Origin: Candidatus Saccharimonadota bacterium
GTDB lineage: Bacteria; Pseudomonadota; Gammaproteobacteria; Enterobacterales; Enterobacteriaceae
Length of the DNA stretch: 32,000 nt
NCBI RefSeq assembly: GCF_004296535.1
Contig: NZ_AP018159.1
Coordinates: 90,001 to 122,000, forward strand
Direction: 5' to 3'
Below, in pieces: positions 2-31,669 of the stretch. The notes under the pieces were generated by a model that was not told where the DNA came from, searched no databases, and saw only the letters and a program-made list of their open reading frames with translations. Both the position numbers and the translations under genes were made by a program. Position 1 is the first letter of the stretch; the number at the start of each line of letters is the position of its first letter.

Positions 2-1429
2 ATACCAATTACATTTTTTATAAATAAAAATAACAATGAGATTCATCCTAAAAGTTATCTATTTATAAAAAAAATTTCTAAAAAAATTAAAAAATATGGA
101 ATAGAATATTGGAATAATTTAAACATCAAAGATTTTTTAAAAAAAAAAGATTACAATTTATTTTATAAATCTAAAGATATTTTAGATGTTTGGTTTGATT
201 CTGGTTCTTCTTTAATATTTATGTCATCATTATATAAAAGAATGAAAAAATACAAAAGAGCAGATATATATTTAGAAGGTCAAGATCAATATAGGGGTTG
301 GTTTATGTCTTCTCTTTTAATAAATGCGGCTTTATTAAATAAAGAACCATATAAAACAGTTATAACTCATGGTTTTGTATTAGATAATTTAAATAAAAAA
401 ATGTCAAAATCATTAGGAAATGTTATAGATCCTAATATATTAATAAATAAATATGGAAGTGATGTTATAAGATTATGGATAGCGTCCTCCAATTATAATA
501 AAGATATAAAAATTTCTATAGAAACTTTAAATAGAGTATCAGATATATATAAAAAAATAAGAAACACATTAAGATTTTTAATATCTAATTTATATGATTT
601 TAATCCTAATATAAATTGTGTTAAATTTAATAATATGGTTAAAATAGATCAATGGATTATAAATAAACTATATTTTGTTCAAGAAAAAATTATGCATAAT
701 TATAATAATTATTTATTTAATAATGTTATAACTTTAATATCAAATTTTTGTATTATAAATTTAAGTTCTACATATTTTGAAATAATAAAAGATAGACAAT
801 ATATATTTAATAGTGATTCAAAATATAGAAGAAGTTCTCAAACAGCCATTTTTCATATATTAAAATCAATATCTATAATTATATCTCCAATATTATCATT
901 TATGTCTAATGAAATATACGACAATTTTATACCTAATAAAAAAAACAAATTAGTTTTTATTGAAAAATGGTATAAATTAAAAAGATTTAATAAAAATGAA
1001 AAATTTAATGAAGATTTTTGGAATATAATTTTTAATATAAAACATCAAATTAATATTATTTTAGAAGAAAAAATAAAAAAAAAGTATATACAAACATTTA
1101 TGGAAATGGATATTATATTATATATAATAAATAAAAAAAAATTTTTCAATAAAATAAATATTTTAAAAAATGAATTAAAATATATTTTTATAGTATCTCA
1201 TGTACTTTTAGTAAAATTAAAAAAAATTAATAATAATAATAATACTATTAATAATAATTTAAAATTCTCTAAAATAAATTTTATAAAAATAAAAACTTTT
1301 CACAATTTTTATAAAAAAAAATGTAATAGATGTTGGAATTTTTATAGAAAAAAATATATAAAAAATAAAATTTGTAAAAGATGTATAAATATAATTAATT
1401 ATAAAGAAGAAAAAAGATTTTTTGCATAA
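2..1429 (+). CDS. ileS: Isoleucine--tRNA ligase, C-terminal part (5' end outside window)
   Basis: Frame 2 is open from the window edge (IPITFFINKNNNEIHP...ILDVWFDSGSS), so the M at 221 in the ORF track is internal. It has a KMSKS loop (KKMSKSLGN) and a C-terminal CxxC...CxxC zinc knuckle (CNRCWN...CKRC) typical of bacterial IleRS. Confidence 0.95.
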   Translation: MPITFFINKNNNEIHPKSYLFIKKISKKIKKYGIEYWNNLNIKDFLKKKDYNLFYKSKDILDVWFDSGSSLIFMSSLYKRMKKYKRADIYLEGQDQYRGWFMSSLLINAALLNKEPYKTVITHGFVLDNLNKKMSKSLGNVIDPNILINKYGSDVIRLWIASSNYNKDIKISIETLNRVSDIYKKIRNTLRFLISNLYDFNPNINCVKFNNMVKIDQWIINKLYFVQEKIMHNYNNYLFNNVITLISNFCIINLSSTYFEIIKDRQYIFNSDSKYRRSSQTAIFHILKSISIIISPILSFMSNEIYDNFIPNKKNKLVFIEKWYKLKRFNKNEKFNEDFWNIIFNIKHQINIILEEKIKKKYIQTFMEMDIILYIINKKKFFNKINILKNELKYIFIVSHVLLVKLKKINNNNNTINNNLKFSKINFIKIKTFHNFYKKKCNRCWNFYRKKYIKNKICKRCINIINYKEEKRFFA

Positions 1430-3515: not shown

Positions 3516-4898
3516 TTATAAACCTGATATTTTAATATTATCAATCATTATAGATCCTGATTTTATTATACTTTTATTATTATAATCATTACTCATTAAT
3601 AAAATATTTTTAAATATTTGTAACAAATTACCAGATATTGTAATTTCATTTACAAATGTATCTATTATACCATTTTTAATTATAAACCCAGAAATTCCTT
3701 GAGAATAATCACCAGTAAAAATATTTAATCCTTCACCTATAATATTCGTTACTAATATTCCATTATACATTTCTTTAATTAAATCATCAAATAAAACTTT
3801 TTTATGTTTTATAATAAAAATCCAATTATATATTCCATTAGCATTTCCTGTATTAAATAATTTTAACATTTTAGACGAAAAACTATCTAATAAAAAATTT
3901 TTTAATATTCCATTTTTTATTATAAATTTTTTTTTTGTTTCTATTCCTTCCTTATCGAACGGACAAGATCCTATTTCTTCTAAAATATGAGGATCTTCTA
4001 TAATATTCATCCAACTTGGAAATATTTTCTTATTAAAATAATTTTTTAAATAACTTTTATTTAAATATATATTTTTACCATTTATAGATCTAGAAAAATC
4101 TAAAAATATATTTGAAACTATATTATTTTTTATAATTATTTTTGATATAGAACTTTTAATTTTTATATAATTTAATTCTAAAAAAGATTCTTTTACAATA
4201 TTAAAACCAAATTTATCTATTTTATTAATAATTTTTTTAGATCTTTCATTAATATAATCATATTTTTGTGTAATATTATATTTATTTTTAGATGATATTG
4301 TGCAATTTATATTATAATAACTTGAATAAAAATTATTTATAACATTATATGTATTTCCATATATAAAATTTTCATATAATTCATAAAATGTTACATCATC
4401 TACTTTAGTTATAGAATTATATTTTTTACTATAATCAATAATATTATTTTTAATATTTTGTATTATATTAAATTTATTTTTGTTATAAAAAATATCATCA
4501 AAATTTAACAAATTTAAATTTTTAGGATAAAAACACATTAAATGATAATCTGGTATATAAATATGATTATTATTAATTAAAGTGGTAAAACTAATATATT
4601 TATTTATCTCATTTTTTATATTTTCTATATTAAAATTGTAAGTTTTAATATTAATAAATTTGTTTTTAATATATAAAAAAATATTAATATAAGAATTATA
4701 TTTCTTATTTAAAAAAAAAACATTATTTTTTATTGAATATTCTAAACATATATTATATTTAATATTTATATATGAAAAATTTACTTTTTTAATAATAAAT
4801 ATATAATTTAAAATTTTTTTTAATAATTCTATATAAAATTTATTTTTTTTAAATAAATTATTTATTATATCAATTTCTGATTTATTTTTTAAATTCAT
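3516..4898 (-). CDS. pmbA: PmbA/TldE metalloprotease-family protein
   Basis: 460 aa. The segment CPFDKEGIETKKKFIIKNGILKNFLLDSFSSKMLKL..TGNA..IYNW, and the C-terminal ITISGNLLQIFKNILLMSNDYN...GSIMIDNIKISG, match the PmbA C-terminal half. There is no TldD-type HExxxH-like motif. Confidence 0.8.
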   Translation of the reverse strand: MNLKNKSEIDIINNLFKKNKFYIELLKKILNYIFIIKKVNFSYINIKYNICLEYSIKNNVFFLNKKYNSYINIFLYIKNKFINIKTYNFNIENIKNEINKYISFTTLINNNHIYIPDYHLMCFYPKNLNLLNFDDIFYNKNKFNIIQNIKNNIIDYSKKYNSITKVDDVTFYELYENFIYGNTYNVINNFYSSYYNINCTISSKNKYNITQKYDYINERSKKIINKIDKFGFNIVKESFLELNYIKIKSSISKIIIKNNIVSNIFLDFSRSINGKNIYLNKSYLKNYFNKKIFPSWMNIIEDPHILEEIGSCPFDKEGIETKKKFIIKNGILKNFLLDSFSSKMLKLFNTGNANGIYNWIFIIKHKKVLFDDLIKEMYNGILVTNIIGEGLNIFTGDYSQGISGFIIKNGIIDTFVNEITISGNLLQIFKNILLMSNDYNNKSIIKSGSIMIDNIKISGL

Positions 4899-6994: not shown

Positions 6995-8746
6995 ATGAAT
7001 AAAATAAAATTAAAAATTATTAGCTTAATTAAAAAAATTAATTATTTTAATTATAATTATAATATTTTAAATAAATCTATTATATCAGATAATGAATATG
7101 ATTTTTTATATAACAAATTAGAAATATTAAGTAAAAAATATCCAAATTTAATAAAAAATTATTATATAAATAATATTAATAACAATTTACATTTAACTTC
7201 TAATAGTCATAAACATATATTAAAAATGATATCTATTAAAAGCACATATTCAATAAAAAAAATATATAAATTTGAAGAAAATATTATAAAAAAAAATAAT
7301 ATTAAAATAAAAGAATATTGTTGTGAATTAAAATTAGATGGTATAGCTATAAATATTATATATAAAAATAATAATTTATATAAAATTTTAACAAGAGGCA
7401 ATGGTGAATATGGAGAAGATATCACAAAAAATAAATTTTTTATAAAAAATATTCCTGATAAAATAGTTTTTTTAAATTATAAAAGTCCAAGTTTAGTTGA
7501 AATAAGAGGAGAATTATGTATATCAAATTATAATTTTGATTTTATAAACAAAATTATTAAAGAAAAATATAATAAAATTTTTGTAAATAAAAGACATGCT
7601 GTATCAGGAATTATAAGAAATAAAATAAAAAATAAAATTTATTATAAATTATTAAATTTTATTGCACATGGTATTGGATATTGTTTTTTTTTAAATAAAA
7701 GTTTAAATAAATTTAAAAAACACAATAATCTTTTAAATTATATTAATAAATTAGGTTTTGAAACTGTTGAAAGAAAAATTTGTAAAACAATAAAAGAATC
7801 TATAAAATATATAAATTTTATAGAAGATAATTATAAATTTAATAAATATAAATACTTAATAGATGGTGTAATATTAAAAATAAATTCTATAAAATTACAA
7901 AACATATTAGGAAATTCAAGTAAATATCCAAATTGGTCTATAGCGTATAAATTCAATTCAACATATAAAGAAACAATATTAACAGATGTAACATTTAATA
8001 TAACTAAAAATGGAAATTTTATTCCAATAGGTAAAATAAAAAGTATAAATATATCAGGTATTAATATAAAAAAAATTTTTTTACATAATATAAAAAAAAT
8101 AAAAAGTTTGGATCTAATGATAGGTGATTATATATTAATATACTTATCAGGAAATTTAATACCAACTATAAAAAATGTAATAAAAGATAAAAGAAATAAT
8201 GAAATAAAAAATATATTTTATCCTAAAAATTGTTTATCATGTAATTATAAATTATCTTTATATAAAGATATATTAAAATGTAATAATTTTTTTTGTAAAT
8301 CTAAAATTAAATATAAAATAAGTCATTTTTTTTCTAAAAAATGCATATATATAAAATATTTAAATAAAAAAAATATATGTGAATTAATAGATGATAATTT
8401 TGTTAAAAATATTATAGATATATTTAAATTAGATTTAAATATATTAAACAAATATATTAAAAATAATAAAAAAGTAAATTCAATATATAAAACAATTAAT
8501 GGTAAAGTAAATATTAATATAAAAAATTTTTTATATGCATTAAATATAGAAAATATAGGAGAAAAAACATTAAGTATAATATGTAACAATATTAAAAAAT
8601 ATGAAGAATTATTTACATTAAATAATATTTATATTAAAGATTTAAATAAAAATCAATTAAAAAATATAAATATATTTTTTTCTAAAATAAAAAATATAAA
8701 TTTTATAAAAGAGATTACACAAAAATATATAAATATTATTTTTTAA
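6995..8746 (+). CDS. ligA: NAD-dependent DNA ligase, lacking the C-terminal BRCT region
   Basis: It has an adenylation KxDG motif (CELKLDGIAI), VEIRGEL, DGVILKINS and PNWSIAYKF, a four-Cys zinc finger (CLSCN...CNNFFC) and an HhH-like segment (IGEKTLS). It ends at 583 aa, directly before tRNA-Lys. Confidence 0.92.
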   Translation: MNKIKLKIISLIKKINYFNYNYNILNKSIISDNEYDFLYNKLEILSKKYPNLIKNYYINNINNNLHLTSNSHKHILKMISIKSTYSIKKIYKFEENIIKKNNIKIKEYCCELKLDGIAINIIYKNNNLYKILTRGNGEYGEDITKNKFFIKNIPDKIVFLNYKSPSLVEIRGELCISNYNFDFINKIIKEKYNKIFVNKRHAVSGIIRNKIKNKIYYKLLNFIAHGIGYCFFLNKSLNKFKKHNNLLNYINKLGFETVERKICKTIKESIKYINFIEDNYKFNKYKYLIDGVILKINSIKLQNILGNSSKYPNWSIAYKFNSTYKETILTDVTFNITKNGNFIPIGKIKSINISGINIKKIFLHNIKKIKSLDLMIGDYILIYLSGNLIPTIKNVIKDKRNNEIKNIFYPKNCLSCNYKLSLYKDILKCNNFFCKSKIKYKISHFFSKKCIYIKYLNKKNICELIDDNFVKNIIDIFKLDLNILNKYIKNNKKVNSIYKTINGKVNINIKNFLYALNIENIGEKTLSIICNNIKKYEELFTLNNIYIKDLNKNQLKNINIFFSKIKNINFIKEITQKYINIIF

Positions 8747-8752
8747 AAGAAA

Positions 8753-8825
8753 TGGGTCGTGCAGGACTCGAACCTGCGACCAATTGATTAAAAGTCAACT
8801 GCTCTACCTTCTGAGCTAACAACCC
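8753..8825 (-). tRNA. tRNA-Lys (anticodon UUU)
   Basis: The reverse complement GGGTTGTTAGCTCAGAAGGTAGAGCAGTTGACTTTTAATCAATTGGTCGCAGGTTCGAGTCCTGCACGACCCA folds as a cloverleaf and is near-identical to E. coli tRNA-Lys. No CCA is encoded. Confidence 0.95.
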
Positions 8826-8836
8826 TCTTTATATAG

Positions 8837-8908
8837 TAGGTAATATTGGACTTGAACCAATGACCCTCTCCTTGTAAAAGAGATGCTCTACCTCTGAGCT
8901 AATTACCT
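8837..8908 (-). tRNA. tRNA-Val (anticodon UAC)
   Basis: The reverse complement AGGTAATTAGCTCAGAGGTAGAGCATCTCTTTTACAAGGAGAGGGTCATTGGTTCAAGTCCAATATTACCTA has a 7-bp acceptor stem and anticodon loop TTTACAA. The Val-then-Lys order, divergent from gltX, mirrors E. coli valU..lysV/gltX. Confidence 0.93.
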
Positions 8909-8983
8909 AAATTTATAATTATATAGTATACTTTTAATATATAAAATGGTCAATATTATTTTAAATTAAAAAAAAAATATAAA

Positions 8984-10375
8984 ATGATAATAACAAGATT
9001 TGCTCCAAGTCCTAATGGATATTTACATATAGGAAATATAAGAATAGCATTATATTCATGGATATTTGCAAAAAAAAATAATGGTAAATTCTTATTAAGA
9101 ATAGAAGATACAGATATTAATGATTCCAATAAAATTTTTAAAAAAAATATCATAAAAGATATGAAATGGTTAGGTTTAAATTGGGATAATAAAGTTATAA
9201 TACAATCTGATAGAATAAATATATATAATAAAATAATAGATGAACTTTTAGAATCTAAATTAGCATATCCATGTTTTTGTAAAATTAATAATAAAATATT
9301 TAAAAAAAATAAAAAATATAAAAAATATAATAAATTTTGTAGATATAAAAATTTTTCAAGTTATGATTTAAAAAATAAATTACATGTTATAAGATTTAAA
9401 AATCCTATAAATACAGAAATAATTTTAAATGATAAAATATATGGATTAATAAAATTTAATAGTAATGAATTAGATGATTTAATAATAAGAAGGGAAAACA
9501 AATTACCAACATATAATTTTTGTGTTGTTGTAGATGATATTTATTCAAAAATAACTCATATAATAAGAGGATCTGATCATATAAGTAATACACCAAAACA
9601 AATAAATATATTCAATGCAATGAATTATAAAGTTCCAGAATATATACATATACCTATAATATTAGACAAAAATAAGAATAAAATATCTAAAATAAAAAAT
9701 AATTTGAATTTAAAATATTTTAAATATAATGGAATTTTATCTAAATCTATAATACATTATCTATCAAGTATAGGTAATTCTTGTTTTGAAAATATTAATA
9801 AAAATGTTTTTTCTAAAAAAGAAATAATAAATAATTTTAATATATATAAAATAAATAAATCACAAATAACTTTTGATTACAAAAAAGTATTACAAATAAA
9901 TAAAAATTATTTATGTTATACAGATATAAATAAAATATATAAATTTTTTAGAAAATTTATTAATTTAAAAAAAATAAAAATTAAAAATGATTTTAGAATA
10001 TTAAAATTATTTAGAAATTCATATTTTACATTTAATGAAATTATAGAAAATAATGATTTTTTGTATATAGAACCAAAATTAAATATTAATTTATTAAAAA
10101 ATAATTTAACAATAAATAATTTTAATATTATTAATACAATTAATAATATTAAAAATAATATTTTTTTTATTAATAAATGGAATTTAGATAATATAAATAT
10201 ATCTTTGTGTAAAGAAATAAATAAATATTCAATCGAATATAAACATTATATTTATAAAATTATAAGAATATTAATATCTGGAAAATTAAAAACAACAAGT
10301 ATATCAATTATAATATATATATTAGGAAAAAATATATCTATTAATAGATTAGATAAAATAAATATTATTAAATAA
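8984..10375 (+). CDS. gltX: Glutamate--tRNA ligase
   Basis: The N-terminus IITRFAPSPNGYLHIGNIRIALYSWIFAKKNNGKFLLRIEDTD contains the HIGH motif. A Cys cluster (CFC...FCRY) sits at the E. coli zinc-site position. The KISKI segment stands in for KLSKR. Confidence 0.93.
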   Translation: MIITRFAPSPNGYLHIGNIRIALYSWIFAKKNNGKFLLRIEDTDINDSNKIFKKNIIKDMKWLGLNWDNKVIIQSDRINIYNKIIDELLESKLAYPCFCKINNKIFKKNKKYKKYNKFCRYKNFSSYDLKNKLHVIRFKNPINTEIILNDKIYGLIKFNSNELDDLIIRRENKLPTYNFCVVVDDIYSKITHIIRGSDHISNTPKQINIFNAMNYKVPEYIHIPIILDKNKNKISKIKNNLNLKYFKYNGILSKSIIHYLSSIGNSCFENINKNVFSKKEIINNFNIYKINKSQITFDYKKVLQINKNYLCYTDINKIYKFFRKFINLKKIKIKNDFRILKLFRNSYFTFNEIIENNDFLYIEPKLNINLLKNNLTINNFNIINTINNIKNNIFFINKWNLDNINISLCKEINKYSIEYKHYIYKIIRILISGKLKTTSISIIIYILGKNISINRLDKINIIK

Positions 10376-10674: not shown

Positions 10675-11320
10675 TTAAAATATATAAAATATTATAATAT
10701 TTATTATAAAATTTATAATAATACTAAATAGTATATCAGTTAAATAATGAATTTTAAATATAACTCTAAAAATTAATAAAAATATTATTATAAAATTTAA
10801 TATAAATATAACTATAATATTTATATTTAATAAATTTTTATAATATATAAAATTAAATAATATATTATAAAATAATAATGTATGACCTGATGGAAAGGAA
10901 TAATTATTATTTTTAAATAAAATTTTTTTATTTATAAAATTAAATATTTTATTCAAAAAAATTATATTTTTAAAATAAAAAATATTTTTTTTTATATATA
11001 AAATATTATTTTCACTAGGTCTTTTTATTTTGAAAATATTTCTTATAAAAATTTTTAAAAAATGTTCTATTATATTTATTAAAATTATTTTATATATAAA
11101 AAAAATAAAATTTTTTTTATTTAAATATTTTTTAAAATAAAATATATTTATTATATATATAAATAATAAAAATATATAATTAAAAATATAAAAAAAAAAT
11201 ATTATAAATAAAATTTTTATTAAATAAATTTATAATAAAAAAAAGTATACTTATAACTAAAATATTTATAATATAAAATATAATAAAAATTAAAAAGAGC
11301 GTTTTATTTTTTAAAATCAT
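10675..11320 (-). pseudogene. PAP2-family membrane phosphatase (PgpB/YbjG-like), split by a +1 frameshift at a T10 tract; possibly rescued by slippage
   Basis: The downstream frame is open from 11229 to 10675. It carries all three PAP2 motifs: RNIFKIKRP (KxxxxxxRP-like), FPSGH and FRVIFKIHYLTD (SRxxxxxHxxxD-like). It has no ATG/GTG/TTG upstream of motif 1. The only ATG, at 11320, opens a different frame (MILKNKTLFLIFIIFYIINILVISILFF...) that stops at 11182..11180. The two frames overlap across the homopolymer at 11190..11199. Confidence 0.6.
11190..11199 (-). repeat. T10 homopolymer in mRNA sense (A10 on the + strand) at the PAP2 frame junction
   Basis: Read directly from the sequence: aaaaaaaaaa at 11190..11199. 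Losing one T joins the ATG frame to the PAP2 motif frame. Confidence 0.85.
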
Positions 11321-14581: not shown

Positions 14582-15061
14582 ATGAAAATTTTCGATATAT
14601 TTATAGATGGTTCATGTTTGATAAATCCAGGACCTGGTGGTTATGGAATTATAATTAAAAATTATAATAATTGTAAAAATATATTTATTAGTAAAGGATA
14701 TTATTTTACAACTAATAATAGAATGGAATTAATGTCTGCTATATTTTCATTAAAAAATATTTATATAAAAAATAATAATATAAATATTTATACTGATAGT
14801 TTATATTTAAAAAATGGAATAACAAAATGGATTTTTATATGGATAAATAATAATTGGAAATCATGTAAAAAAAAAAAAATTAAAAATATAGATTTATGGA
14901 TAAAATTATATAATTTATCTAAGCTATATATAATAAAATGGAATTGGATAAAAAAAAATTCTTACTATAATAATATTTTATGTGATAATTTAGCAAAAAA
15001 AGCAGCTAAAAATCCAACAGAAATAGATAAGTGGTATATTAAAAATAATAATAAATTATAA
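14582..15061 (+). CDS. rnhA: Ribonuclease HI
   Basis: IFIDGSCLINPGPGGYGIII, TTNNRMELMSAI, IYTDSLYL and CDNLAKKAA match the RNase HI catalytic D/E/D/D contexts. The gene contains an in-frame A13 tract at 14867..14879. Confidence 0.9.
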   Translation: MKIFDIFIDGSCLINPGPGGYGIIIKNYNNCKNIFISKGYYFTTNNRMELMSAIFSLKNIYIKNNNINIYTDSLYLKNGITKWIFIWINNNWKSCKKKKIKNIDLWIKLYNLSKLYIIKWNWIKKNSYYNNILCDNLAKKAAKNPTEIDKWYIKNNNKL

Positions 15062-18372: not shown

Positions 18373-18723
18373 ATTATTATAATTTATTAAATTTTAAAAA
18401 AATATTTTTTAAAAACTGAAATATAAAAAATATTAAATTTTTTTTTTACGATATAAAATAAAAATAAAAAATATTTAATTTTTTTTAAATATATTTATCT
18501 TAATAATATATTATTATTTATATATATATATTTAAATAAATATTTATTTTTTTTTTTTAAAATAAAATATTATTTATTTTATAAATTTATTATAAAATAA
18601 TTTTTTAATATATGATTAAAAAATATTTATTTTATATAATTATATTATATCTTAAAAAAATATTTTTATTTAAATTATATCAAATAATAAAGTCTATTAT
18701 AACTTATAATTATTAAAATTAAT

Positions 18724-19794
18724 ATGTGTAAAAAAGTTTTAATAGCAATGTCTGGAGGAGTTGATTCATCAGTTTCAGCATATTTGCTAAAGCAAAAATA
18801 TATAGTAGAAGCTATTTTTATAAATAATTGGAATTTTAACATATGTAATAATTCAAAAGATTTATTAGATGTTATAAATATAACAAATAATATATTGAAA
18901 ATAAAATTACATATATTAGATTTTTCTAAAGAATTTTGGGAAAAGGTATTTATAAAAACTATAAAAGAATATAAAAAAGGCAAAACTCCTAATCCAGATA
19001 TTTTATGTAATAAATATGTTAAATTTAATAAATTAATAAAATTTATGAAAAGTATAAAATTTGACTATATATCTACTGGTCATTATGTTAAATTAAAATT
19101 TATTAATAATAAATATTTTTTAAAAAAATCAAAAGATTTATATCAAGATCAGAGTTATTTTTTATATTCATTAAATCAAAAAATATTAAAATATTGTATA
19201 TTTCCTTTAGGAGATATGACAAAATATAATGTAAGAAAATTAGCTAAAAAAAATAAATTATTTAATTATAATAAACCAAGTTCTACTGGAATATGTTTTA
19301 TAAATAATAAAAATTTTAAAAAATTTATATCAAAATACATAGAAAAAAAATATGGAAAAATATTAACATTAGATAATAAATATATTGGAAACCATGATGG
19401 ACATTATTATTATACTATAGGACAAAGAAAAGGATTAAACTTAGGTGGTATAAAAAATTATAATTCAAAACCTTGGTATATAATAAAAAAAGATTGTAAA
19501 AAAAATATTTTATATGTATCACAAAATAAAAATTTAAACTTTTTATATAAAGGATTAATTGTAAAAAATATAGATTGGATATTTTTTAAATCAAATTTTT
19601 TAAGTATTAAAATTACCGCTAAAATAAGATATAGTATAAATTGTATAAGTTGTAAATTATATATTATAAATAAAAATTATTTAATTATAATTTTTGATAA
19701 TTTAAATGGAATAGTTGTTCCAGGACAATCTGTTGTTTTTTATATTAATAATTACTGTATAGGAGGTGGAATAATACATAAAGAAATTTTATAA
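18724..19794 (+). CDS. mnmA: tRNA-specific 2-thiouridylase
   Basis: It has a PP-loop VLIAMSGGVDSSVSAYLL, plus TPNPDILCN, ISTGHY and DQSYFL, which are characteristic of MnmA/TrmU. Confidence 0.93.
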   Translation: MCKKVLIAMSGGVDSSVSAYLLKQKYIVEAIFINNWNFNICNNSKDLLDVINITNNILKIKLHILDFSKEFWEKVFIKTIKEYKKGKTPNPDILCNKYVKFNKLIKFMKSIKFDYISTGHYVKLKFINNKYFLKKSKDLYQDQSYFLYSLNQKILKYCIFPLGDMTKYNVRKLAKKNKLFNYNKPSSTGICFINNKNFKKFISKYIEKKYGKILTLDNKYIGNHDGHYYYTIGQRKGLNLGGIKNYNSKPWYIIKKDCKKNILYVSQNKNLNFLYKGLIVKNIDWIFFKSNFLSIKITAKIRYSINCISCKLYIINKNYLIIIFDNLNGIVVPGQSVVFYINNYCIGGGIIHKEIL

Positions 19795-21091: not shown

Positions 21092-21110
21092 AAAATATTA
21101 TATATATATT

Positions 21111-21350
21111 TTATTTATTTAAAATTTTATTTAAATAATTTTTAATTTCATAGAAATTATCTAATTTATCTACATATTCATCTGGTATCACTATATTAAA
21201 TTCATCTTCTATATCCATAATTATTTCTATTATATCTAATGAATCTATATTTAATTCTTTTTTAAAAGATTTTATTAAAATTAATTTATCATGAGTTATA
21301 TTAAATTTATTTGATATAATATTTTTTATTTTTTGTTCTATTTTATTCAT
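21111..21350 (-). CDS. acpP: Acyl carrier protein
   Basis: 79 aa. The phosphopantetheine-attachment motif is DSLDIIEIIMDIEDEFNIVIPDE. Confidence 0.93.
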   Translation of the reverse strand: MNKIEQKIKNIISNKFNITHDKLILIKSFKKELNIDSLDIIEIIMDIEDEFNIVIPDEYVDKLDNFYEIKNYLNKILNK

Positions 21351-21375
21351 TAAATTTTTAATATTGATTTGTTTA

Positions 21376-21552
21376 TTATTTTTTTTTTAAATTTAATAAT
21401 TTATTTTTATAAAATCCATTTTTTGTTATTCTATGATATATATGATATTCTCCAGTATATATATTTTTTAATATATTTTTAAAAATATACTTTTTATTAG
21501 ATCTTCTCATACCTATTTTTGATTTTGTTTTTTTTCTTTTTTGAACAGCCAT
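21376..21552 (-). CDS. rpmF: 50S ribosomal protein L32 (absent from the supplied ORF track)
   Basis: Hand translation of the minus strand gives MAVQKRKKTKSKIGMRRSNKKYIFKNILKNIYTGEYHIYHRITKNGFYKNKLLNLKKK (58 aa) with a TAA stop at 21378..21376. It matches the L32 signature MAVQQNK.T.SKRGMRRSH...G...HH....G.YRG. Its position between rluC and acpP fits the E. coli rpmF-plsX-fab-acpP cluster. Confidence 0.88.
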   Translation of the reverse strand: MAVQKRKKTKSKIGMRRSNKKYIFKNILKNIYTGEYHIYHRITKNGFYKNKLLNLKKK

Positions 21553-21554
21553 AA

Positions 21555-22478
21555 TTATAATTGTGATATTTTTTTTATAAAATCAGATAATTTATTATCT
21601 AATGGTGAATTAATTTCTATTACTTTATTATATATTGGATGAATAAATTTTATGTAAGTTGAATGTAAAAACATTCTTTTTAATCCATATTTTAAAACAA
21701 TTTTATTATAATTTTTATTTCCATATATATTATCCATAACTATTGGATTTCCAATAAAACTTGTATGAATTCTTATTTGATGAGTTCTTCCAGTTATAGG
21801 AATTGCTTCTATTAAAGTCATATCTTTAAAATATTTTATTACATTTATTTTAGTTATAGATTTTTTACCTAAATGATTACTTATAATAGATTTTTTTTTT
21901 TTACTTATTTTATCTATAAAAGTATGTATTGGTAATCTAATTATATTATTTTTTATATTCCATGCTCCATATACTAATGCTATATATTTTTTAAATATGG
22001 AATTTTCATTAAATAAAAAATTTATTTTTTTTAAAATAGATAAATTTTTAGATATTATTAATATTCCAGATGAATTTTTATCTAATCTATGAACCAAATT
22101 ATAATTATTATTATATACTGATTTTATATAAGAAATTATATTAAATGTATTACTTAATCCATTATGAACTGATATTCCATGAGGTTTATTTATTATTAAT
22201 AAATATTTATCTTCATAAAGTATTTTATTTTTTATAAATTCTTTATCATTATATTTAATATAAGAATATTTTTTTTTATTAAATAAATTATAAATTATAT
22301 CTAATTTATCATTAATTTGTAATTTATAATCTGGTTTTACAATACTATTATTTATTTTTACATAACCTTTTCTTATAATTTTATATATTAATGATTTAGG
22401 AACATTTTTATAATTTGAAAAAAACCAATTATCTATTCTTCTATTTAAATCTATATATTTAATATTAAAAAATTTCAT
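21555..22478 (-). CDS. rluC: 23S rRNA pseudouridine synthase RluC
   Basis: It has an S4-like N-terminus RIDNWFFSNYKNVPKSLIYKIIRKGYVKINN, the catalytic motif HRLDKNSSGILIISK, and GRTHQIR. It is divergent from rne as in E. coli. Confidence 0.88.
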   Translation of the reverse strand: MKFFNIKYIDLNRRIDNWFFSNYKNVPKSLIYKIIRKGYVKINNSIVKPDYKLQINDKLDIIYNLFNKKKYSYIKYNDKEFIKNKILYEDKYLLIINKPHGISVHNGLSNTFNIISYIKSVYNNNYNLVHRLDKNSSGILIISKNLSILKKINFLFNENSIFKKYIALVYGAWNIKNNIIRLPIHTFIDKISKKKKSIISNHLGKKSITKINVIKYFKDMTLIEAIPITGRTHQIRIHTSFIGNPIVMDNIYGNKNYNKIVLKYGLKRMFLHSTYIKFIHPIYNKVIEINSPLDNKLSDFIKKISQL

Positions 22479-26730: not shown

Positions 26731-27885
26731 TTATGTAAAATATTTAATAATAGGTATATTAAAATTTTCAATAAATTTAAATAATGTATAACTATCTATA
26801 TAATAAAAATATATTTTTTTTATATAATTAAATTTTTTTAAAGAAATAAAATTACTATATCCAACAATAATAGATTTTAAATTTTTATTTTTAGATATAT
26901 TATCTAAAATTAATTTTGTTCCATTAGAAAAATTAGATATTTCAAATATTCCAATAGATCCTATCCATAATAATATATCAATATTTTCTATATTATCAAT
27001 AATATTTTTTATATATTTGGATCCTAAATCTACAATTATATCATTACTATTTATATTATTTATTAATTTATTTTTACATATAGAATTTTTAGATATATTT
27101 ATAGAAGTTTTAACATCATTTGGCAAAATAATATTATTTAAATCTTCTAATGAATTATTTTTATTATTATTATCATTTATATCATAATCTATAATTGATT
27201 TACCTATTTTATAATTATTAAATAATAATAAATCATTAGCTATAACACCACCTATAAATATTTTATAAGATATAATAGAAATTTTTTTTATAAAAAGTAT
27301 TTTTTTATTTATATTACATCCTCCTATAATAGAAACTATTTTTCTATTTTGATTAAAAATTGTATATAAATTATTTGCTTTTTTATAAAAAGATAATCCA
27401 CAACATGAAATTTTTGCAAATTTTGCTACTCCATATGTTGATGAATGAAACATAAAAGAATAAGAAAAAGAGTCCATAACAAATATATCACATAAACTTG
27501 CATATTTTTTAGATAAATTTTCATTATTTTTTATTTCTCCATTATTAAACATAACATTTTCTAATAAATAAATTTCATTTTTTTTAACATTTATATTTTT
27601 TTTATATAAATAATTTTTTATTAAATTTATTTTTACTTTTAATTTTTTTTCTAAATATTTTTTTATTATTTCTAAAGAAAATAATGGAAAATATTTATTA
27701 TAATTATCTCCAAGATTAGAAAATATAATAATATACGCTTTATTAGACAAAGCATATTTAATTGTTTCTAATGAATCCAATATTTTAATGTCTGATAAAA
27801 TTTTATTATTTTTTATTGGAACATTAAAATCTGACCTTATAAGTAATATTTTGTTGTTTATTTTTATATCTTTTATACTCAACAT
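26731..27885 (-). CDS. pgk: Phosphoglycerate kinase homologue, with eroded substrate-binding motifs
   Basis: 384 aa and collinear with E. coli Pgk (LLIRSDFNVPIKNNKI, LLENVMFNNGE, LSKKYASLCDIFVMDSF, IGGVIAN). SHLGRP is replaced by SNLGDN, GTAHRA by SYSFMF, AGGGDT by VGYSNF, and STGGGAFLEF by YIDSYTLFKF. Confidence 0.8.
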   Translation of the reverse strand: MLSIKDIKINNKILLIRSDFNVPIKNNKILSDIKILDSLETIKYALSNKAYIIIFSNLGDNYNKYFPLFSLEIIKKYLEKKLKVKINLIKNYLYKKNINVKKNEIYLLENVMFNNGEIKNNENLSKKYASLCDIFVMDSFSYSFMFHSSTYGVAKFAKISCCGLSFYKKANNLYTIFNQNRKIVSIIGGCNINKKILFIKKISIISYKIFIGGVIANDLLLFNNYKIGKSIIDYDINDNNNKNNSLEDLNNIILPNDVKTSINISKNSICKNKLINNINSNDIIVDLGSKYIKNIIDNIENIDILLWIGSIGIFEISNFSNGTKLILDNISKNKNLKSIIVGYSNFISLKKFNYIKKIYFYYIDSYTLFKFIENFNIPIIKYFT

Positions 27886-27900
27886 ATTTTCCTATAAAAA

Positions 27901-28547
27901 TTAAAATTTATTTTTTTGTATATATATATAATAAATATTATTATTTTTTAATATACTTTTTTTTTCAAAATTTGTATTTATAAATATATTTTTATAACAA
28001 ATTATATTTTTTATAAAAAAATTTAATTTATCTAATAAATAATTAAAATTATCTAATATATACTCAAAATAATTTAATGAATCTGTTATTATATGTATAG
28101 TACCATTAAATTCTAATATTTTTAAAAGTTGTTTTATAAATATTTTATTTATTAATCTTCTTTTTTTATGTTTATTTTTATTCCATGGATCTGGAAAAAA
28201 TATTCTTATTTCATAAATAGAATTATTTTTTATATATTTAGAAATTATTTTTTTTGCATCACATTTTATTATTTTAATATTATTTATTTTATATAAATTA
28301 ATATTTTTAATAAAATTACCTATTCCAAATAAATAATTATCTATTCCTAAAAAGTTATTTTCTTTTTTATTAATAGAATCTTTTATCATATATGATCCAT
28401 TTCCAAAACCTATTTCTAATATAATTTTATTGTTTTTATTTAAAAAAAAATTATTTAAATTATTTTTTTTTTTATATTATTAATAGATATTTTTTGTATA
28501 AATTTTTTTATATAATATTTTTGAGATTTGGTAATTCTATTTCTCAT
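27901..28547 (-). pseudogene. trmB: tRNA (guanine46-N7)-methyltransferase, split by a -1 frameshift at an A11 tract; possibly rescued by slippage
   Basis: The downstream frame, open from 28476, contains the SAM motif ILEIGFGNGSY followed by FFPDPWNKNKHKKRRLI, but its first start codon (28389) lies after the SAM motif. An ATG at 28547 opens MRNRITKSQKYYIKKFIQKISINNIKKKII*, which corresponds to E. coli RQGRLTKGQ and stops at 28457..28455. The two frames meet in the homopolymer at 28463..28473. The gene is divergent from mltC, as trmB/mutY-yggX-mltC are in E. coli. Confidence 0.7.
28463..28473 (-). repeat. A11 homopolymer in mRNA sense (T11 on the + strand) at the trmB frame junction
   Basis: Read directly from the sequence: t x11 at 28463..28473. 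One extra A in the mRNA yields IKKKNNLNNFFLNKNNKIILEIGFG. Confidence 0.85.
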
Positions 28548-28718
28548 ATCATTTTAATTTAATTTGAAAAAACAAATTTGTATTTTATAGATTATTTATT
28601 TTTTTTATTAATAATATAGAATTATTTTATAATATTATTTAAAAAAAATTTTTTAATTGTAATAAAATATTTTCTACTATTTTACATTTTTTAAAATTTA
28701 TAAAATAAAAAGAATATT

Positions 28719-29783
28719 ATGTATAAAACTTTTATAATTGTTATAAATTTGATGTATATTACAATGAAAATATCAAATAGTATTAATAATTATAAATTAT
28801 ATTATACTAGTTTAATAAGTATAAATAAATTCAAAAAATATAATTATTATATATGGAAAGAATTTTCAATTGATGATGACTCTTTTGTTACATATAAAAA
28901 TAATTTTTTAATTAGAAATTATATTGATTTAAATAATAAAAATATAACAATAAATTGTATATGTAAAAATAAAAAAATAGCATTAAAAATTATTACAAAT
29001 GAAATAAAAAATATATTTTCATTAAAAAATATATTATATTATTTTTATAATAAAAAAATTAATATAGATAGATATATATATATTAAAAGTTTTTTATTAG
29101 ACTATTCAGATTATTTAGAAAATATTAAAAATAATTTAGAAAAATTTACTGAAATTCTATTAAGTAAAAAAATTTACTATATTAGAAGTAATGGTAAAAA
29201 TATGTATACGTTAAAAATTAATTTAATAAAAAATATAGATAATAAAAACGATTTAATAAATATTATTAAATTAATATCAAATAAATATAATATAGATTAT
29301 TTATTAATACTATCAATTATAAAAGCTGAATCTAATTTTAATAAATTTGCTATTAGTAAATATGGAGCTATTGGATTAATGCAAATAATAGAAAACAAAT
29401 CATGTGCAGATGTTTTAAAAGTATTTAATAAGAAAAAAAAAATAAGTGTAGAATGTTTATTTAATGAAAAAAATAATATAGATATGGGTGTTGCATATAT
29501 ATATATATTAAAGAATATTTATTTAAGTAAAATAAAAAATTTAATATCATTAAGATATTTAATAATATCTTCATATAATGGAGGCACTAATTCTATATTA
29601 AAAATTTTTTCTAATGATTTTAATGAATCAATAAATATAATAAACAATATGAGTAATGATGATGTATATAATTTTATTATAAATCATCATCCATCTGAAG
29701 AAACTAAAAAATATTTAAAAAAAGTTAATAGATTATATATTAATTATAAAAATTTAGAATTCAATAAAAAATTATGTATTTAA
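28719..29783 (+). CDS. mltC: Membrane-bound lytic murein transglycosylase C
   Basis: 354 aa against about 359 aa in E. coli. It has the SLT catalytic motif IIKAESNFNKFAISKYGAIGLMQI. The C-terminal SSYNGGTNSILKIFSND...IINNMSNDDVYNFIINHHPSEETKKYLKKVN is collinear with E. coli MltC (TAYNGGAGSVLRVFSNDK...[28 protein letters not shown]). Confidence 0.9.
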   Translation: MYKTFIIVINLMYITMKISNSINNYKLYYTSLISINKFKKYNYYIWKEFSIDDDSFVTYKNNFLIRNYIDLNNKNITINCICKNKKIALKIITNEIKNIFSLKNILYYFYNKKINIDRYIYIKSFLLDYSDYLENIKNNLEKFTEILLSKKIYYIRSNGKNMYTLKINLIKNIDNKNDLINIIKLISNKYNIDYLLILSIIKAESNFNKFAISKYGAIGLMQIIENKSCADVLKVFNKKKKISVECLFNEKNNIDMGVAYIYILKNIYLSKIKNLISLRYLIISSYNGGTNSILKIFSNDFNESINIINNMSNDDVYNFIINHHPSEETKKYLKKVNRLYINYKNLEFNKKLCI

Positions 29784-31669
29784 AAAAAAATATTAATAAA
29801 AATTTTTTTGATGTAATAGTTATAGGTGGAGGGCATTCTGGAGTAGAAGCTTCTAATGCGTCTTCTAAGATGGGATGTAAAACATTATTAATAACAAATA
29901 ATATTGATTCTATAGGACAAATGTCATGTAACCCTTCAATAGGAGGAATAGGTAAAAGTCATCTTGTTAAAGAAATAGATGCATTAGGCGGAATAATGTC
30001 AATGGCTATAGACAGATCTGGTATACAATTTAGAAAATTGAATACTAGTAAAGGATTAGCTGTTCAATCTACTAGAGCTCAAGCTGATAGATATATATAT
30101 AGTAGAGAAGTAAAAAAAATATTATTTAGTAACAAAAATTTATATGTATTTCAAGATAAAGTTATAAAGTTATTAATAAATAATAATAAAATAAATGGTA
30201 TATCTACTGTATTAGGGTTTAATTTTTTTTCTAAATCTGTTATTTTATGTTTAGGAACTTTTTTAAATGGATTTATATATATAGGAACAAAATTTAAATA
30301 TAAAGGTGGAAGATCTAATGATATATCATCTACATATTTATCTAATCAATTAAAAGAAATATTTCCATTTTCTATAAATAAGTTAAAAACAGGAACTCCA
30401 CCTAGATTAGATTTAAAAACTATAAATTTTAATAAGTTAAATTTTCAAAAAAGCGATTATCCTATACCAATGTTTTCTTTTATTAAACAAAATAATAATT
30501 TAAAAAAAATATATTGTTATATAACATATACAAATGAAAATACACATAATATAATATATAAAAATCTACATTATAGTCCAATGTATACAAATAAAATATG
30601 TAGTATAGGACCAAGATATTGCCCATCTATAGAAGATAAAATAATAAAATTTAAAGATAAAAAAAGTCATCATATATTTTTAGAACCTGAAAGCTTATTT
30701 AGTAATGAAATATATCCAAATGGAATATCTACTAGTTTACCTATAAATATTCAATTTAAAATAATAAAATCTATAAAGGGATTAGAAAAATGTAGAATAA
30801 CAAGACCAGGATATGCTGTAGAATATAATTTTTTAGACCCTAAAAATCTTTATTATACATTAGAAAGCAAAATTATATCTGGATTATTTATATCTGGGCA
30901 ATTAAACGGTACAACAGGATATGAAGAAGCTGCTTCTCAAGGAATTATATCTGGCATAAATGCTGCATTATTTTCTAAAAATATGGAATCTTGGTATCCA
31001 AAAAAAGAATATTCTTATATAGGATTAATGATAAAAGATTTATGTGATAATGGAGTTATTGAACCATATAGAATGTTTACATCTAGGTCTGAAAATAGAT
31101 TTTTTTTAAGAGAAGATAATGCTGATATGAGATTAACAAAATATGGGTATAATTTAGGTTTAATTAATGAGTTTAGATGGAAAATTTTTGTTAATAAAAA
31201 AAATAATATATTAAATGAAAAAAACAGACTAAAAAATTTAAATATAGATATAAAAAAAATTAATAATAAAATTAATAAAAAAATAAATATAGAAAAAAAA
31301 GAAATAAATGCATTTGAATTATTAAAATTAAATGAAATATCTTATAAAGATATATTAAATATAATAGATTACACTTATAATAAGAATAAAAATTATATTG
31401 AAGAAATTTATAAATTAATAGAAATAGATATAAAATATGAATATTTTATATTAAAACAAAAAAAAGAAGTTGATATAAAAAATAAATTTTTAAAAATGTT
31501 AATACCTAAAGATATAAATTATAACAATATATCTGGATTATCTAATGAATCAAAATATTTATTATATAAATACAGACCAAATAATATAGAAGATATATTA
31601 AAAATACCAAATATAACATCATCATCTATTTTTATATTAATTATTTGGATTAAAAATAATAGAAAATGA
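29774..31669 (+). CDS. mnmG: tRNA uridine 5-carboxymethylaminomethyl modification enzyme MnmG (GidA)
   Basis: It has the FAD motif DVIVIGGGHSGVEAS, plus SCNPSIGGIGKSHLVKEIDALGG, GPRYCPSIEDK and FISGQLNGTTGYEEAASQG. It is well conserved at 631 aa. Confidence 0.97.
   Translation: MYLKKNINKNFFDVIVIGGGHSGVEASNASSKMGCKTLLITNNIDSIGQMSCNPSIGGIGKSHLVKEIDALGGIMSMAIDRSGIQFRKLNTSKGLAVQSTRAQADRYIYSREVKKILFSNKNLYVFQDKVIKLLINNNKINGISTVLGFNFFSKSVILCLGTFLNGFIYIGTKFKYKGGRSNDISSTYLSNQLKEIFPFSINKLKTGTPPRLDLKTINFNKLNFQKSDYPIPMFSFIKQNNNLKKIYCYITYTNENTHNIIYKNLHYSPMYTNKICSIGPRYCPSIEDKIIKFKDKKSHHIFLEPESLFSNEIYPNGISTSLPINIQFKIIKSIKGLEKCRITRPGYAVEYNFLDPKNLYYTLESKIISGLFISGQLNGTTGYEEAASQGIISGINAALFSKNMESWYPKKEYSYIGLMIKDLCDNGVIEPYRMFTSRSENRFFLREDNADMRLTKYGYNLGLINEFRWKIFVNKKNNILNEKNRLKNLNIDIKKINNKINKKINIEKKEINAFELLKLNEISYKDILNIIDYTYNKNKNYIEEIYKLIEIDIKYEYFILKQKKEVDIKNKFLKMLIPKDINYNNISGLSNESKYLLYKYRPNNIEDILKIPNITSSSIFILIIWIKNNRK

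Follow-up and report, generated by a model that had tools for sequence, protein, structure and literature searches.

A frameshift within a poly(A) tract splits trmB in the genome sequence of the Nardonella symbiont of Euscepes postfasciatus

Introduction

The product of trmB is the tRNA m7G46 methyltransferase. In the genome sequence of the Nardonella symbiont of Euscepes postfasciatus, the gene is deposited as a coding sequence of 162 amino acids that begins downstream of its own SAM-binding motif, and the sequence resembling the TrmB N-terminus is found in a different reading frame. This arrangement raises the question of whether trmB is a dead gene, an intact gene that was misread at a single base or a frameshifted gene whose full-length product is still made in part.

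The genomic window and its homopolymeric runs

The 32-kb window (the whole stretch of DNA that was analysed, numbered from its first base) belongs to the genome of Nardonella, the symbiont of E. postfasciatus (AP018159), and AP018159 is a Nardonella record according to the accession list in PMC9670985. The 162-aa open reading frame at 27901..28389 is 100% identical to BBA84642.1, which is titled 'tRNA (guanine-N(7)-)-methyltransferase [endosymbiont of Euscepes postfasciatus]' and whose record lies on a contig of 219,841 bp. The window has a G+C content of 14.8% and a coding density of about 94%, and its housekeeping genes include ileS (partial), rsmA, ptsHI, ligA, gltX, lon, dnaQ, rnhA, argS, murJ, mnmA, holB, rluC, rne, rpiA, pgk, mltC and mnmG. 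An apparent split of ileS at an A10 tract (139..148) was rejected, as the tract keeps to the reading frame, which is already open at the edge of the window.

Long homopolymers are frequent in this sequence. There are 51 A or T runs of at least 9 bases in the window (about 1.6 per kb), and intact genes contain 33 in-frame A runs of 9-13 nt on their sense strand, among them three A11 tracts in argS, an A13 tract in rnhA and an A12 tract in rluC. An A11 tract is not unusual for the Nardonella window. Manual reading of the variable loops indicated that most of the seven tRNAs encoded in the window keep a G at position 46 (NGGTC), a residue that is not diagnostic for m7G46.

Two reading frames meet in an A11 tract

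The elements of the trmB locus are as follows.

28455..28547, minus strand: 5' segment of trmB in frame A, with ATG at 28547..28545, 30 codons and a premature TAA at 28457..28455
28463..28473, minus strand: A11 tract in mRNA sense (T11 on the plus strand), read as Lys-Lys-Lys codons; the frame changes here
27901..28476, minus strand: 3' segment of trmB in frame B, with 191 codons, the stop at 27903..27901, the SAM motif and the whole catalytic core
28442..28450, minus strand: U9 tract in mRNA sense, in frame (FFL), 12 nt downstream of the A11 tract
28396..28425, minus strand: SAM-binding motif IILEIGFGNG, 5' of the deposited start codon and 3' of the A11 tract
27901..28389, minus strand: deposited coding sequence BBA84642.1, 162 aa with an ATG start, without the SAM motif
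28548..28718: divergent spacer between trmB and mltC, 171 bp

A single uninterrupted trmB frame from start codon to stop is absent, and the switch between the two frames falls inside the A11 tract. Frame A translates from ATG 28547 as MRNRITKSQKYYIKKFIQKISINNIKKKII*, and within it the tract forms the slippery heptamer A_AAA_AAA in phase with this ATG. Frame B reads YKKKNNLNNFFLNKNNKIILEIGFGNGSYM above 28389 and its upstream stretch encodes ..KKKNNLNNFFLNKNNKIILEIGFGNGSYM; it stays open for 29 codons above ATG 28389, up to 28476, and no ATG, GTG or TTG start codon was found in it between 28476 and 28389. ATT and ATA codons in frame B directly precede the SAM motif, which contains the invariant columns I46, G47, F48, G49 and G51. 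An earlier note, made from the sequence of this DNA, had reported that the called open reading frame starts past the SAM motif, that the same frame remains open to 28476 without a start codon, that a second frame runs from ATG 28547 to a stop at 28457..28455 and that the two switch inside an 11-nt homopolymer; all of these coordinates proved to be correct.

Insertion of one A (A12) yields an uninterrupted protein of 215 aa, and deletion of two (A9) yields one of 214 aa. The correction that is needed is +1 nt at the level of the RNA, or a -1 shift at the level of the ribosome. The junction of the repaired protein reads IKKKNNL, and the junction peptide ..INNIKKKNNLNNFF.. spans ISINNIKKKNNLNNFFLNK. 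Translation, alignment and profile comparison revealed no other stop or indel in trmB besides the lesion in the A11 tract. The U9 tract is a second potential slippage site, and the local fold is a weak A/U hairpin between A11 and U9 that includes the tract itself (-11.4 kcal/mol, z = -2.07; 8 of 200 shuffled sequences fold equally well). Beyond this hairpin, no stimulatory element for -1 frameshifting was found near the A11 tract.

The repaired protein is TrmB

The protein obtained with one extra A was compared with the families to which TrmB belongs. Against PF02390 (Methyltransf_4; gathering cutoff 24), scores of 131.6 bits for the repaired protein and 109.2 bits for the 162-aa open reading frame were obtained. 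The equivalog model TIGR00091 has a cutoff of 112.65 bits, and here the repaired 215-aa protein lies above it (130.1 bits) and the 162-aa frame below it (105.1 bits). In an alignment with 10 homologues, the repaired protein keeps 22 of 22 invariant columns, including the motifs EIGFGxG, FFPDPW.K..H.KRR and TD, and it can be aligned to E. coli TrmB (3DXX) and to 1YZH. The earlier estimate that one additional A would give about 215 aa carrying the TrmB motifs is thereby borne out, the length being exactly 215 aa.

A TrmB profile derived from 99 full-length homologues served to evaluate the sequence upstream of the tract. With the 25 residues that precede the tract, the score rises by 14.2 bits (from 181.8 for frame B alone to 196.0 for the repaired protein), whereas composition-preserving shuffles of these residues gave a mean of 182.3 (sd 1.4, maximum 187.4) and none of 300 reached 196.0. 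The same residues align to the conserved TrmB segment 'GRLTKSQKkaLekl' and to RNKLTENKK of the orthologue in the Sipalinus gigas symbiont. Judged by these matches, the 5' open reading frame in frame A is genuine TrmB sequence and no chance open reading frame, as the earlier note had proposed for its N-terminal segment. The two pieces are the halves of one trmB gene, split by a single lesion.

Signs of decay, in the form of multiple lesions, lost motifs or a composition at the level of intergenic DNA, were not found in trmB. The G+C content is 0.15 at first, 0.13 at second and 0.03 at third codon positions, compared with 0.06 in intergenic DNA; since the first two values are well above the others, a composition of the coding type has been retained, although trmB ranks low in GC1 and GC2 among the genes of the window. 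The repaired protein shares about 40% identity with homologues of other bacteria and 44% with the S. gigas orthologue. Both MltC and MnmG share 56% identity between the E. postfasciatus and S. gigas symbionts, and next to these two trmB is not unusually diverged.

The absence of further stops together with the retained motifs had been put forward in the earlier note as an argument against old, neutral decay. This holds for old decay, but a young pseudogene fits the observation equally well. Of the 1935 possible substitutions, 121 create a stop, and an unconstrained copy stays free of stops with a probability above 5% only up to approximately 0.075 substitutions per site. As drift could leave the frame open up to this distance, the intact frame excludes only old decay.

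trmB in other Nardonella genomes

Two further Nardonella loci (AP018162 and AP018161) were recovered via MnmG. Tblastn without composition correction produced heavy low-complexity noise and was used only for the two-frame match in AP018162 and for the junction in AP018161 that lacks a match. AP018162, from the symbiont of S. gigas, has kept the order glyS-trmB-mltC-mnmG, and the adjacency of trmB, mltC and mnmG is common to the symbionts of E. postfasciatus and S. gigas. Its trmB carries an independent frameshift at a site that differs from the A11 tract. Frame 0 reads ..EIIIEIGFGNGIFLLKMQN* and the remainder, ..NAELNKNINFIGID..FPDPWEKKKHNKRR..TD.., is found in the -1 frame; the change of frame falls within GGAATTTTTTTGTTAAAAATG. 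This break lies at T7/A5, where the heptamer U_UUU_UUG is in phase and a -1 shift is needed; a site equivalent to A_AAA_AAA was not found at the same position. Apart from this one lesion, the S. gigas gene is intact and its motifs are kept. In the AP018162 deposit, the frameshift was bridged by re-reading one base, which gives BBA85222.1, a 'tRNA G46 methylase TrmB' of 213 aa, whereas RefSeq splits the gene and lists two hypothetical proteins, one of 62 and one of 142 aa.

At the syntenic glyS-mltC junction of AP018161, the symbiont of Rhynchophorus ferrugineus, trmB is absent and only 20 nt separate the two genes. Synonymous sites are saturated between the trmB genes of the E. postfasciatus and S. 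gigas symbionts (44% protein identity, about 5% GC3). Judging from these loci, trmB is dispensable or eroding in the Nardonella clade, as it is missing at the syntenic site of one lineage and damaged in two. The earlier note had regarded additional disabling mutations in orthologues, combined with transcripts of uniform length, as pointing to a plain pseudogene. In part, such a pattern is what was found: the S. gigas gene is frameshifted elsewhere and the R. ferrugineus symbiont is without a syntenic trmB. The break at T7/A5 and the syntenic loss suggest plain relaxed selection.

Wider searches returned no closer relatives. An exhaustive HMMER search of 1.84 billion representatives yielded no TrmB homologue with more than 48% identity besides the deposited coding sequence, and the exact repaired TrmB sequences were not present among 15 billion proteins. 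AP018159 is the single assembly of the E. postfasciatus symbiont in the collections searched, without a second one. Exact look-ups of the Pgk of the window and of the deposited TrmB sequence returned no recorded encoding contig, and a search of genome contigs for Nardonella loci with a pgk neighbour returned generic Gammaproteobacteria only. Several candidates were set aside on the basis of their gene context. Three TrmB homologues from Logan (P0050, P0081 and P0228) have a mutY/yggX/sbcB context that resembles Buchnera and lack Nardonella synteny, and a fourth TrmB homologue (P0107, GCA_902525035.1) lies in a different context, lnt-trmB-nusA. The Pgk homologue P0114 comes from a non-syntenic locus with his genes, and the MnmG homologues P0392 and P0410 are likewise non-syntenic.

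Other frameshifts at homopolymers

The lesion in trmB is not the only one of its kind in these records. A gene for a PAP2 phosphatase in the window (ATG 11320, stop 10675) changes frame inside a T10 tract at 11199..11190, and with T9 or T12 it would encode a protein of 214-215 aa with the motifs K..RP, PSGH and R..H..D. In AP018161, which was deposited from the same study as AP018159, a ydjM-like gene changes frame at a T11 run. In ileS of AP018161 the reading frame is shifted by 1 nt, and a second strain of this symbiont species, whose genome was sequenced independently, does not have the shift (PMC8248872). As ileS encodes an essential synthetase and cannot be a pseudogene, frameshifts in these records must sometimes be assembly errors or be tolerated via correction at the time of expression, and a frameshift alone is no proof of a dead gene. 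Runs of A or T are hotspots of replication slippage, of miscalls and of RNA polymerase slippage alike, so the position of the lesion does not discriminate between these hypotheses.

Explanations for the split gene

A real frameshift in a marginal trmB, with leaky correction mainly through RNA polymerase slippage, is tentatively favoured here over the other explanations. Replication slippage at the poly(A) hotspot would have contracted A12 to A11 in a gene of marginal importance in this lineage. With this contraction, the part of the gene for SAM binding and catalysis is cut off from the start codon and the first 27 codons. RNA polymerase would then slip backwards on the run of 11 A residues and add one A in a fraction of the transcripts, and ribosomes may, to a lesser degree, shift -1 on A_AAA_AAA. 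Either slip would lead to the same 215-aa TrmB at a reduced level, and the lesion would persist since it is leaky. We infer that the frameshift is real, that it originated by slippage and that it persists through this leakiness. By analogy with other endosymbionts, a slippage rescue of Nardonella trmB appears physically plausible, and what is said here about its expression is carried over from work on Buchnera and Blochmannia. Transcription errors in Buchnera are dominated by single-A insertions, which rise exponentially with run length up to 11 nt, and Traverse and Ochman observed no frame-restoring transcription error in this organism (PMC5574713). At long poly(A) runs of frameshifted endosymbiont genes, 12-50% of transcripts are corrected, according to Tamas et al. 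2008 as summarised by Atkins et al. 2016 (PMC5009743).

Several observations agree with a leaky frameshift: a single lesion lies inside the A11 tract and its repair restores a full TrmB that passes the equivalog cutoff, the S. gigas frameshift was bridged on deposition to give a full-length coding sequence, and homopolymer frameshifts recur in Nardonella records (PAP2 at T10, the ydjM-like gene at T11, ileS). On the other side, the T7/A5 site of S. gigas lacks the length at which RNA polymerase slips efficiently, the tract length rests on one assembly and no full-length version occurs in 15 billion proteins. Signs of an old and conserved A11 frameshift would have to come from close relatives, and the exhaustive search gave no homologue above 48% identity.

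An assembly or sequencing artefact is a serious rival in view of the ileS frameshift in AP018161, even if it appears somewhat unlikely. The genome would in truth have A12 and an intact trmB of 215 aa, with the homopolymer length miscalled in AP018159. But for a single base of a long homopolymer the gene looks perfectly intact, the PAP2 gene in the same 32-kb window is broken likewise at T10, and AP018161 of the same study contains both the ileS frameshift that is absent from an independent strain (PMC8248872) and the T11 frameshift in the ydjM-like gene. Furthermore, there is only one assembly of the E. postfasciatus symbiont in the collections searched. The error rate per tract must nevertheless be low, as the 33 other sense-strand A runs of 9-13 nt are all in frame, and the frameshift in S. 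gigas trmB was bridged by the depositors on purpose instead of being corrected.

Alternatively, the frameshift is real but its slippage product is negligible, so that the tRNAs are without TrmB-made m7G46 and the gene is at an early stage on its way to deletion. Such a plain young pseudogene is considered unlikely. In E. coli, trmB is non-essential. It is gone from the glyS-mltC junction of the R. ferrugineus Nardonella, where 20 nt are left, and it is independently frameshifted in S. gigas at a site without a long homopolymer. Its stop-free state is compatible with drift up to about 0.075 substitutions per site, and its GC1 and GC2 values are at the low end of the window genes. Yet finding the same gene freshly broken in two distant lineages (56% identity in MnmG) would be an unlikely coincidence if broken copies decay fast. 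Conservation extends to every motif and to the N-terminal segment, essential ileS is also frameshifted in these records, and a measurable slippage rate would be expected at an A11 run.

The coincidence between the two lineages also gave rise to a further proposal, which appears improbable. According to it, trmB is a long-term recoded gene in Nardonella whose low-level corrected expression is the selected state, and homopolymer frameshifts are stable and tolerated in 0.2-Mb genomes, even in ileS. Its basis is that two distant lineages carry independent single frameshifts that call for the same -1/+1-nt correction at in-phase heptamers (A_AAA_AAA and U_UUU_UUG). Given rough rates, it is unlikely that the same gene would be caught twice in a brief stop-free state unless single frameshifts are long-lived, that is tolerated, or artefactual.

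The earlier note had found the locus to fit the poly(A) class of Buchnera and Blochmannia, in which RNA polymerase slippage partly restores the frame. The tract, the otherwise intact gene and the restoration of the frame fit this class, but a ribosomal -1 shift yields an identical protein, and the choice of transcription over the ribosome as the level of rescue is beyond what the sequence can assign. A correction that takes place mainly at translation, with the ribosome shifting -1 or sliding on A_AAA_AAA with tRNA-Lys(UUU) and producing the same IKKKNNL junction, is considered improbable. In its favour, A_AAA_AAA is phased correctly for frame A, where a shift of -1 is called for, and the S. 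gigas orthologue likewise calls for -1 and carries U_UUU_UUG in phase at its break. The sliding of E. coli ribosomes on repeated AAA codons (Koutmou et al. 2015, PMC4363877) also speaks for this explanation. It is weakened by the lack of a stimulatory element other than the weak A/U hairpin that includes the tract (-11.4 kcal/mol, z = -2.07), by the ubiquity of such heptamers in a genome of 14.8% GC and by the different sites in the two Nardonella orthologues. In addition, mnmA and mnmG are intact in the window. The products of these genes make the wobble modification of tRNA-Lys, which suppresses frameshifting.

A shortened protein without any frame correction, made by a start or re-initiation in frame B at ATG 28389 or at a non-canonical ATT or ATA directly before IILEIGFGNG, is very improbable: frame B is indeed open for 29 codons above the ATG and has ATT and ATA just before the SAM motif, but the 162-aa product scores below the equivalog cutoff for TrmB and is without the glycine loop that binds SAM, a canonical frame-B start is missing between 28476 and 28389 and the conserved N-terminal segment in frame A would be left unexplained.

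Implications for annotation and for other symbionts

If the frameshift is real and leaky, as tentatively favoured, slippage rescue would extend to beetle symbionts, at a genome size of about 0.2 Mb and a GC content of about 15%. The fidelity of transcription and translation at homopolymers would then have to be a major constraint, long runs being so dense. If it is an artefact, homopolymer-length errors are flagged in the sole reference genome of the E. postfasciatus symbiont. BBA84642.1, a fragment of 162 aa without the SAM motif, should be annotated as a frameshifted gene or as the full-length protein of 215 aa, as an uncorrected entry would cause trmB to be miscounted in tRNA-modification inventories of minimal genomes.

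Comparison with known systems

A single-base lesion at a poly(A) run, as seen in trmB, is a familiar type of lesion among insect symbionts, and by analogy Nardonella trmB formally matches a further example of the phenomenon known from Buchnera and Blochmannia. It shares three of the features that define the class described by Tamas et al. 2008: the tract is at least about 9-10 nt long, the gene is intact in other respects and the frame is restored when the tract length changes by 1-2 nt. The class is further defined by conservation of the frameshift across strains or species and by transcripts of heterogeneous length with an in-frame fraction. As in the poly(A) rescue of Buchnera aphidicola and Blochmannia, the host of the lesion is an AT-rich obligate insect endosymbiont, the single indel lies in an A run of at least 10, the gene is otherwise intact and one additional A restores the frame. 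The closest published parallel is visC of Blochmannia vafer, with a single indel in an A11 tract; of its sister lineages, one has an intact visC and another has none (Williams & Wernegreen 2010, PMC3017870). Its authors noted an ambiguity between slippage and recent erosion (PMC3017870), and the same ambiguity applies to Nardonella trmB.

There are also differences. The rescue in Buchnera and Blochmannia rests on transcripts, while Nardonella trmB is known here from its sequence alone, and the other Nardonella trmB is broken at a different site in a short homopolymer. The Nardonella window is also more extreme, with 14.8% GC and about 1.6 runs of at least 9 bases per kb, in comparison with 114-153 poly(A) tracts of at least 9 bases within the protein-coding regions of a whole Blochmannia genome. 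Relative to the size of the Blochmannia genome, long A/T runs are roughly ten times denser in Nardonella.

Homopolymer-initiated pseudogenes of reduced endosymbionts resemble trmB in that a replication-slippage hotspot is hit in a non-essential gene that is lost or broken in sister lineages. They differ from it in that Nardonella trmB is as yet without secondary lesions and has retained its motifs and its coding-type composition. A likeness to dnaX (A_AAA_AAG in E. coli, an A9 run in Thermus) is seen in the slippery run of lysine codons in the 0 frame and in the -1 shift or additional A. The recoding of dnaX is a conserved and regulated process, which flanking elements stimulate in E. coli, whereas neither a stimulator nor conservation of the site was found for trmB. 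The shift in dnaX makes a second product, while a shift in trmB would merely repair a lesion.

The trmB gene in related symbionts

The trmB orthologue of the Nardonella of Sipalinus gigas (AP018162 locus, 8369..9009, minus strand) is likewise frameshifted, with the break inside GGAATTTTTTTGTTAAAAATG, directly 3' of the SAM motif. Restoring its frame requires one added nucleotide or a -1 shift, and a U_UUU_UUG sequence is in phase at this site. In the AP018162 record as deposited, the break was bridged to give a 213-aa CDS (BBA85222.1); the RefSeq version splits the same gene into hypothetical proteins, one of 62 aa and one of 142 aa. The syntenic glyS-mltC junction in the Nardonella of Rhynchophorus ferrugineus (AP018161 locus, 8895..8916) consists of a 20-nt spacer and does not contain trmB.

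Homopolymer load of the window

The homopolymer load is extreme, as 51 A/T runs of at least 9 bases are found in the 32 kb of the whole window. Within intact genes, in-frame runs of at least 9 bases are A on the sense strand in 33 cases versus only five cases of sense-strand T, and several of the intact genes that carry long in-frame runs are essential. The long runs include:

14867..14879, A13 in rnhA
15121, 15407 and 16003, three A11 runs in argS
21891..21902, A12 in rluC (mRNA sense)

Slippage of RNA polymerase at these tracts, if it occurs, would necessarily mean that a fraction of the transcripts of many normal genes is frameshifted.

tRNAs and wobble modification

Modification of the wobble uridine of tRNA-Lys(UUU) limits frameshifting on AAA codons. 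This tRNA is encoded in the window, and the genes for both enzymes of the modification are intact, which bears on the amount of ribosomal slippage to be expected at an A11 run.

8753..8825, tRNA-Lys(UUU)
18724..19794, mnmA
29774..31669, mnmG

A neighboring tRNA (8836..8908, minus strand) was called by ARAGORN as tRNA-Cys with the odd anticodon ACA, which is probably a misfold. In a canonical cloverleaf, a single base separates the D stem from the anticodon stem, the variable loop is 5 nt long (GGGTC) and UAC falls in the anticodon; by this parse the molecule is tRNA-Val(UAC).

Other frameshifted genes

A further split gene was found in the window:

10675..11320, minus strand, PAP2-family phosphatase, weakly PgpB-like
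11190..11199, minus strand, T10 tract of this gene (mRNA sense)

The first frame runs from an ATG at 11320 to a stop near 11183, and the second is open from approximately 11226 to a stop at 10675. No canonical start is present in the second frame 5' of a TTG at 10956, and the K..RP motif lies upstream of this TTG. A tract of T9 or T12 would fuse both frames into a protein of 214-215 aa, of which the N-terminal hydrophobic piece is a putative part.

Frameshifts are also present in AP018161. A ydjM-like gene (4108..4469 of this locus, 362 nt, 120-residue product) switches frame within a T11 run. A published comparison describes a 1-nt frameshift in ileS that is absent from the independently sequenced strain NardRF (PMC8248872).

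Additional genes and a long spacer

Among the 120 matches listed in a protein search with the window Pgk (pgk, 26731..27885), no other Nardonella orthologue was present, and the closest were from the reed beetle symbionts of Donacia and Plateumaris (44-48% identity). Either pgk is missing from other Nardonella or the copies there are very divergent. Two intact small genes fall under the 80-aa minimum of the ORF list of the window:

within 21092..21554, minus strand, rpmF (L32; MAVQKRKKTKSK.., start 21552)
within 21092..21554, minus strand, acpP (..DSLDIIEIIMDIEDEF..)

The 351-bp murJ-mnmA spacer (18373..18723), in which neither an ORF nor a tRNA was found, is unusually long for a 94%-coding window. 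Two T runs lie within it:

18438..18447, T10
18547..18558, T12

The spacer may be what is left of a gene that has eroded completely, or it may have a regulatory role.
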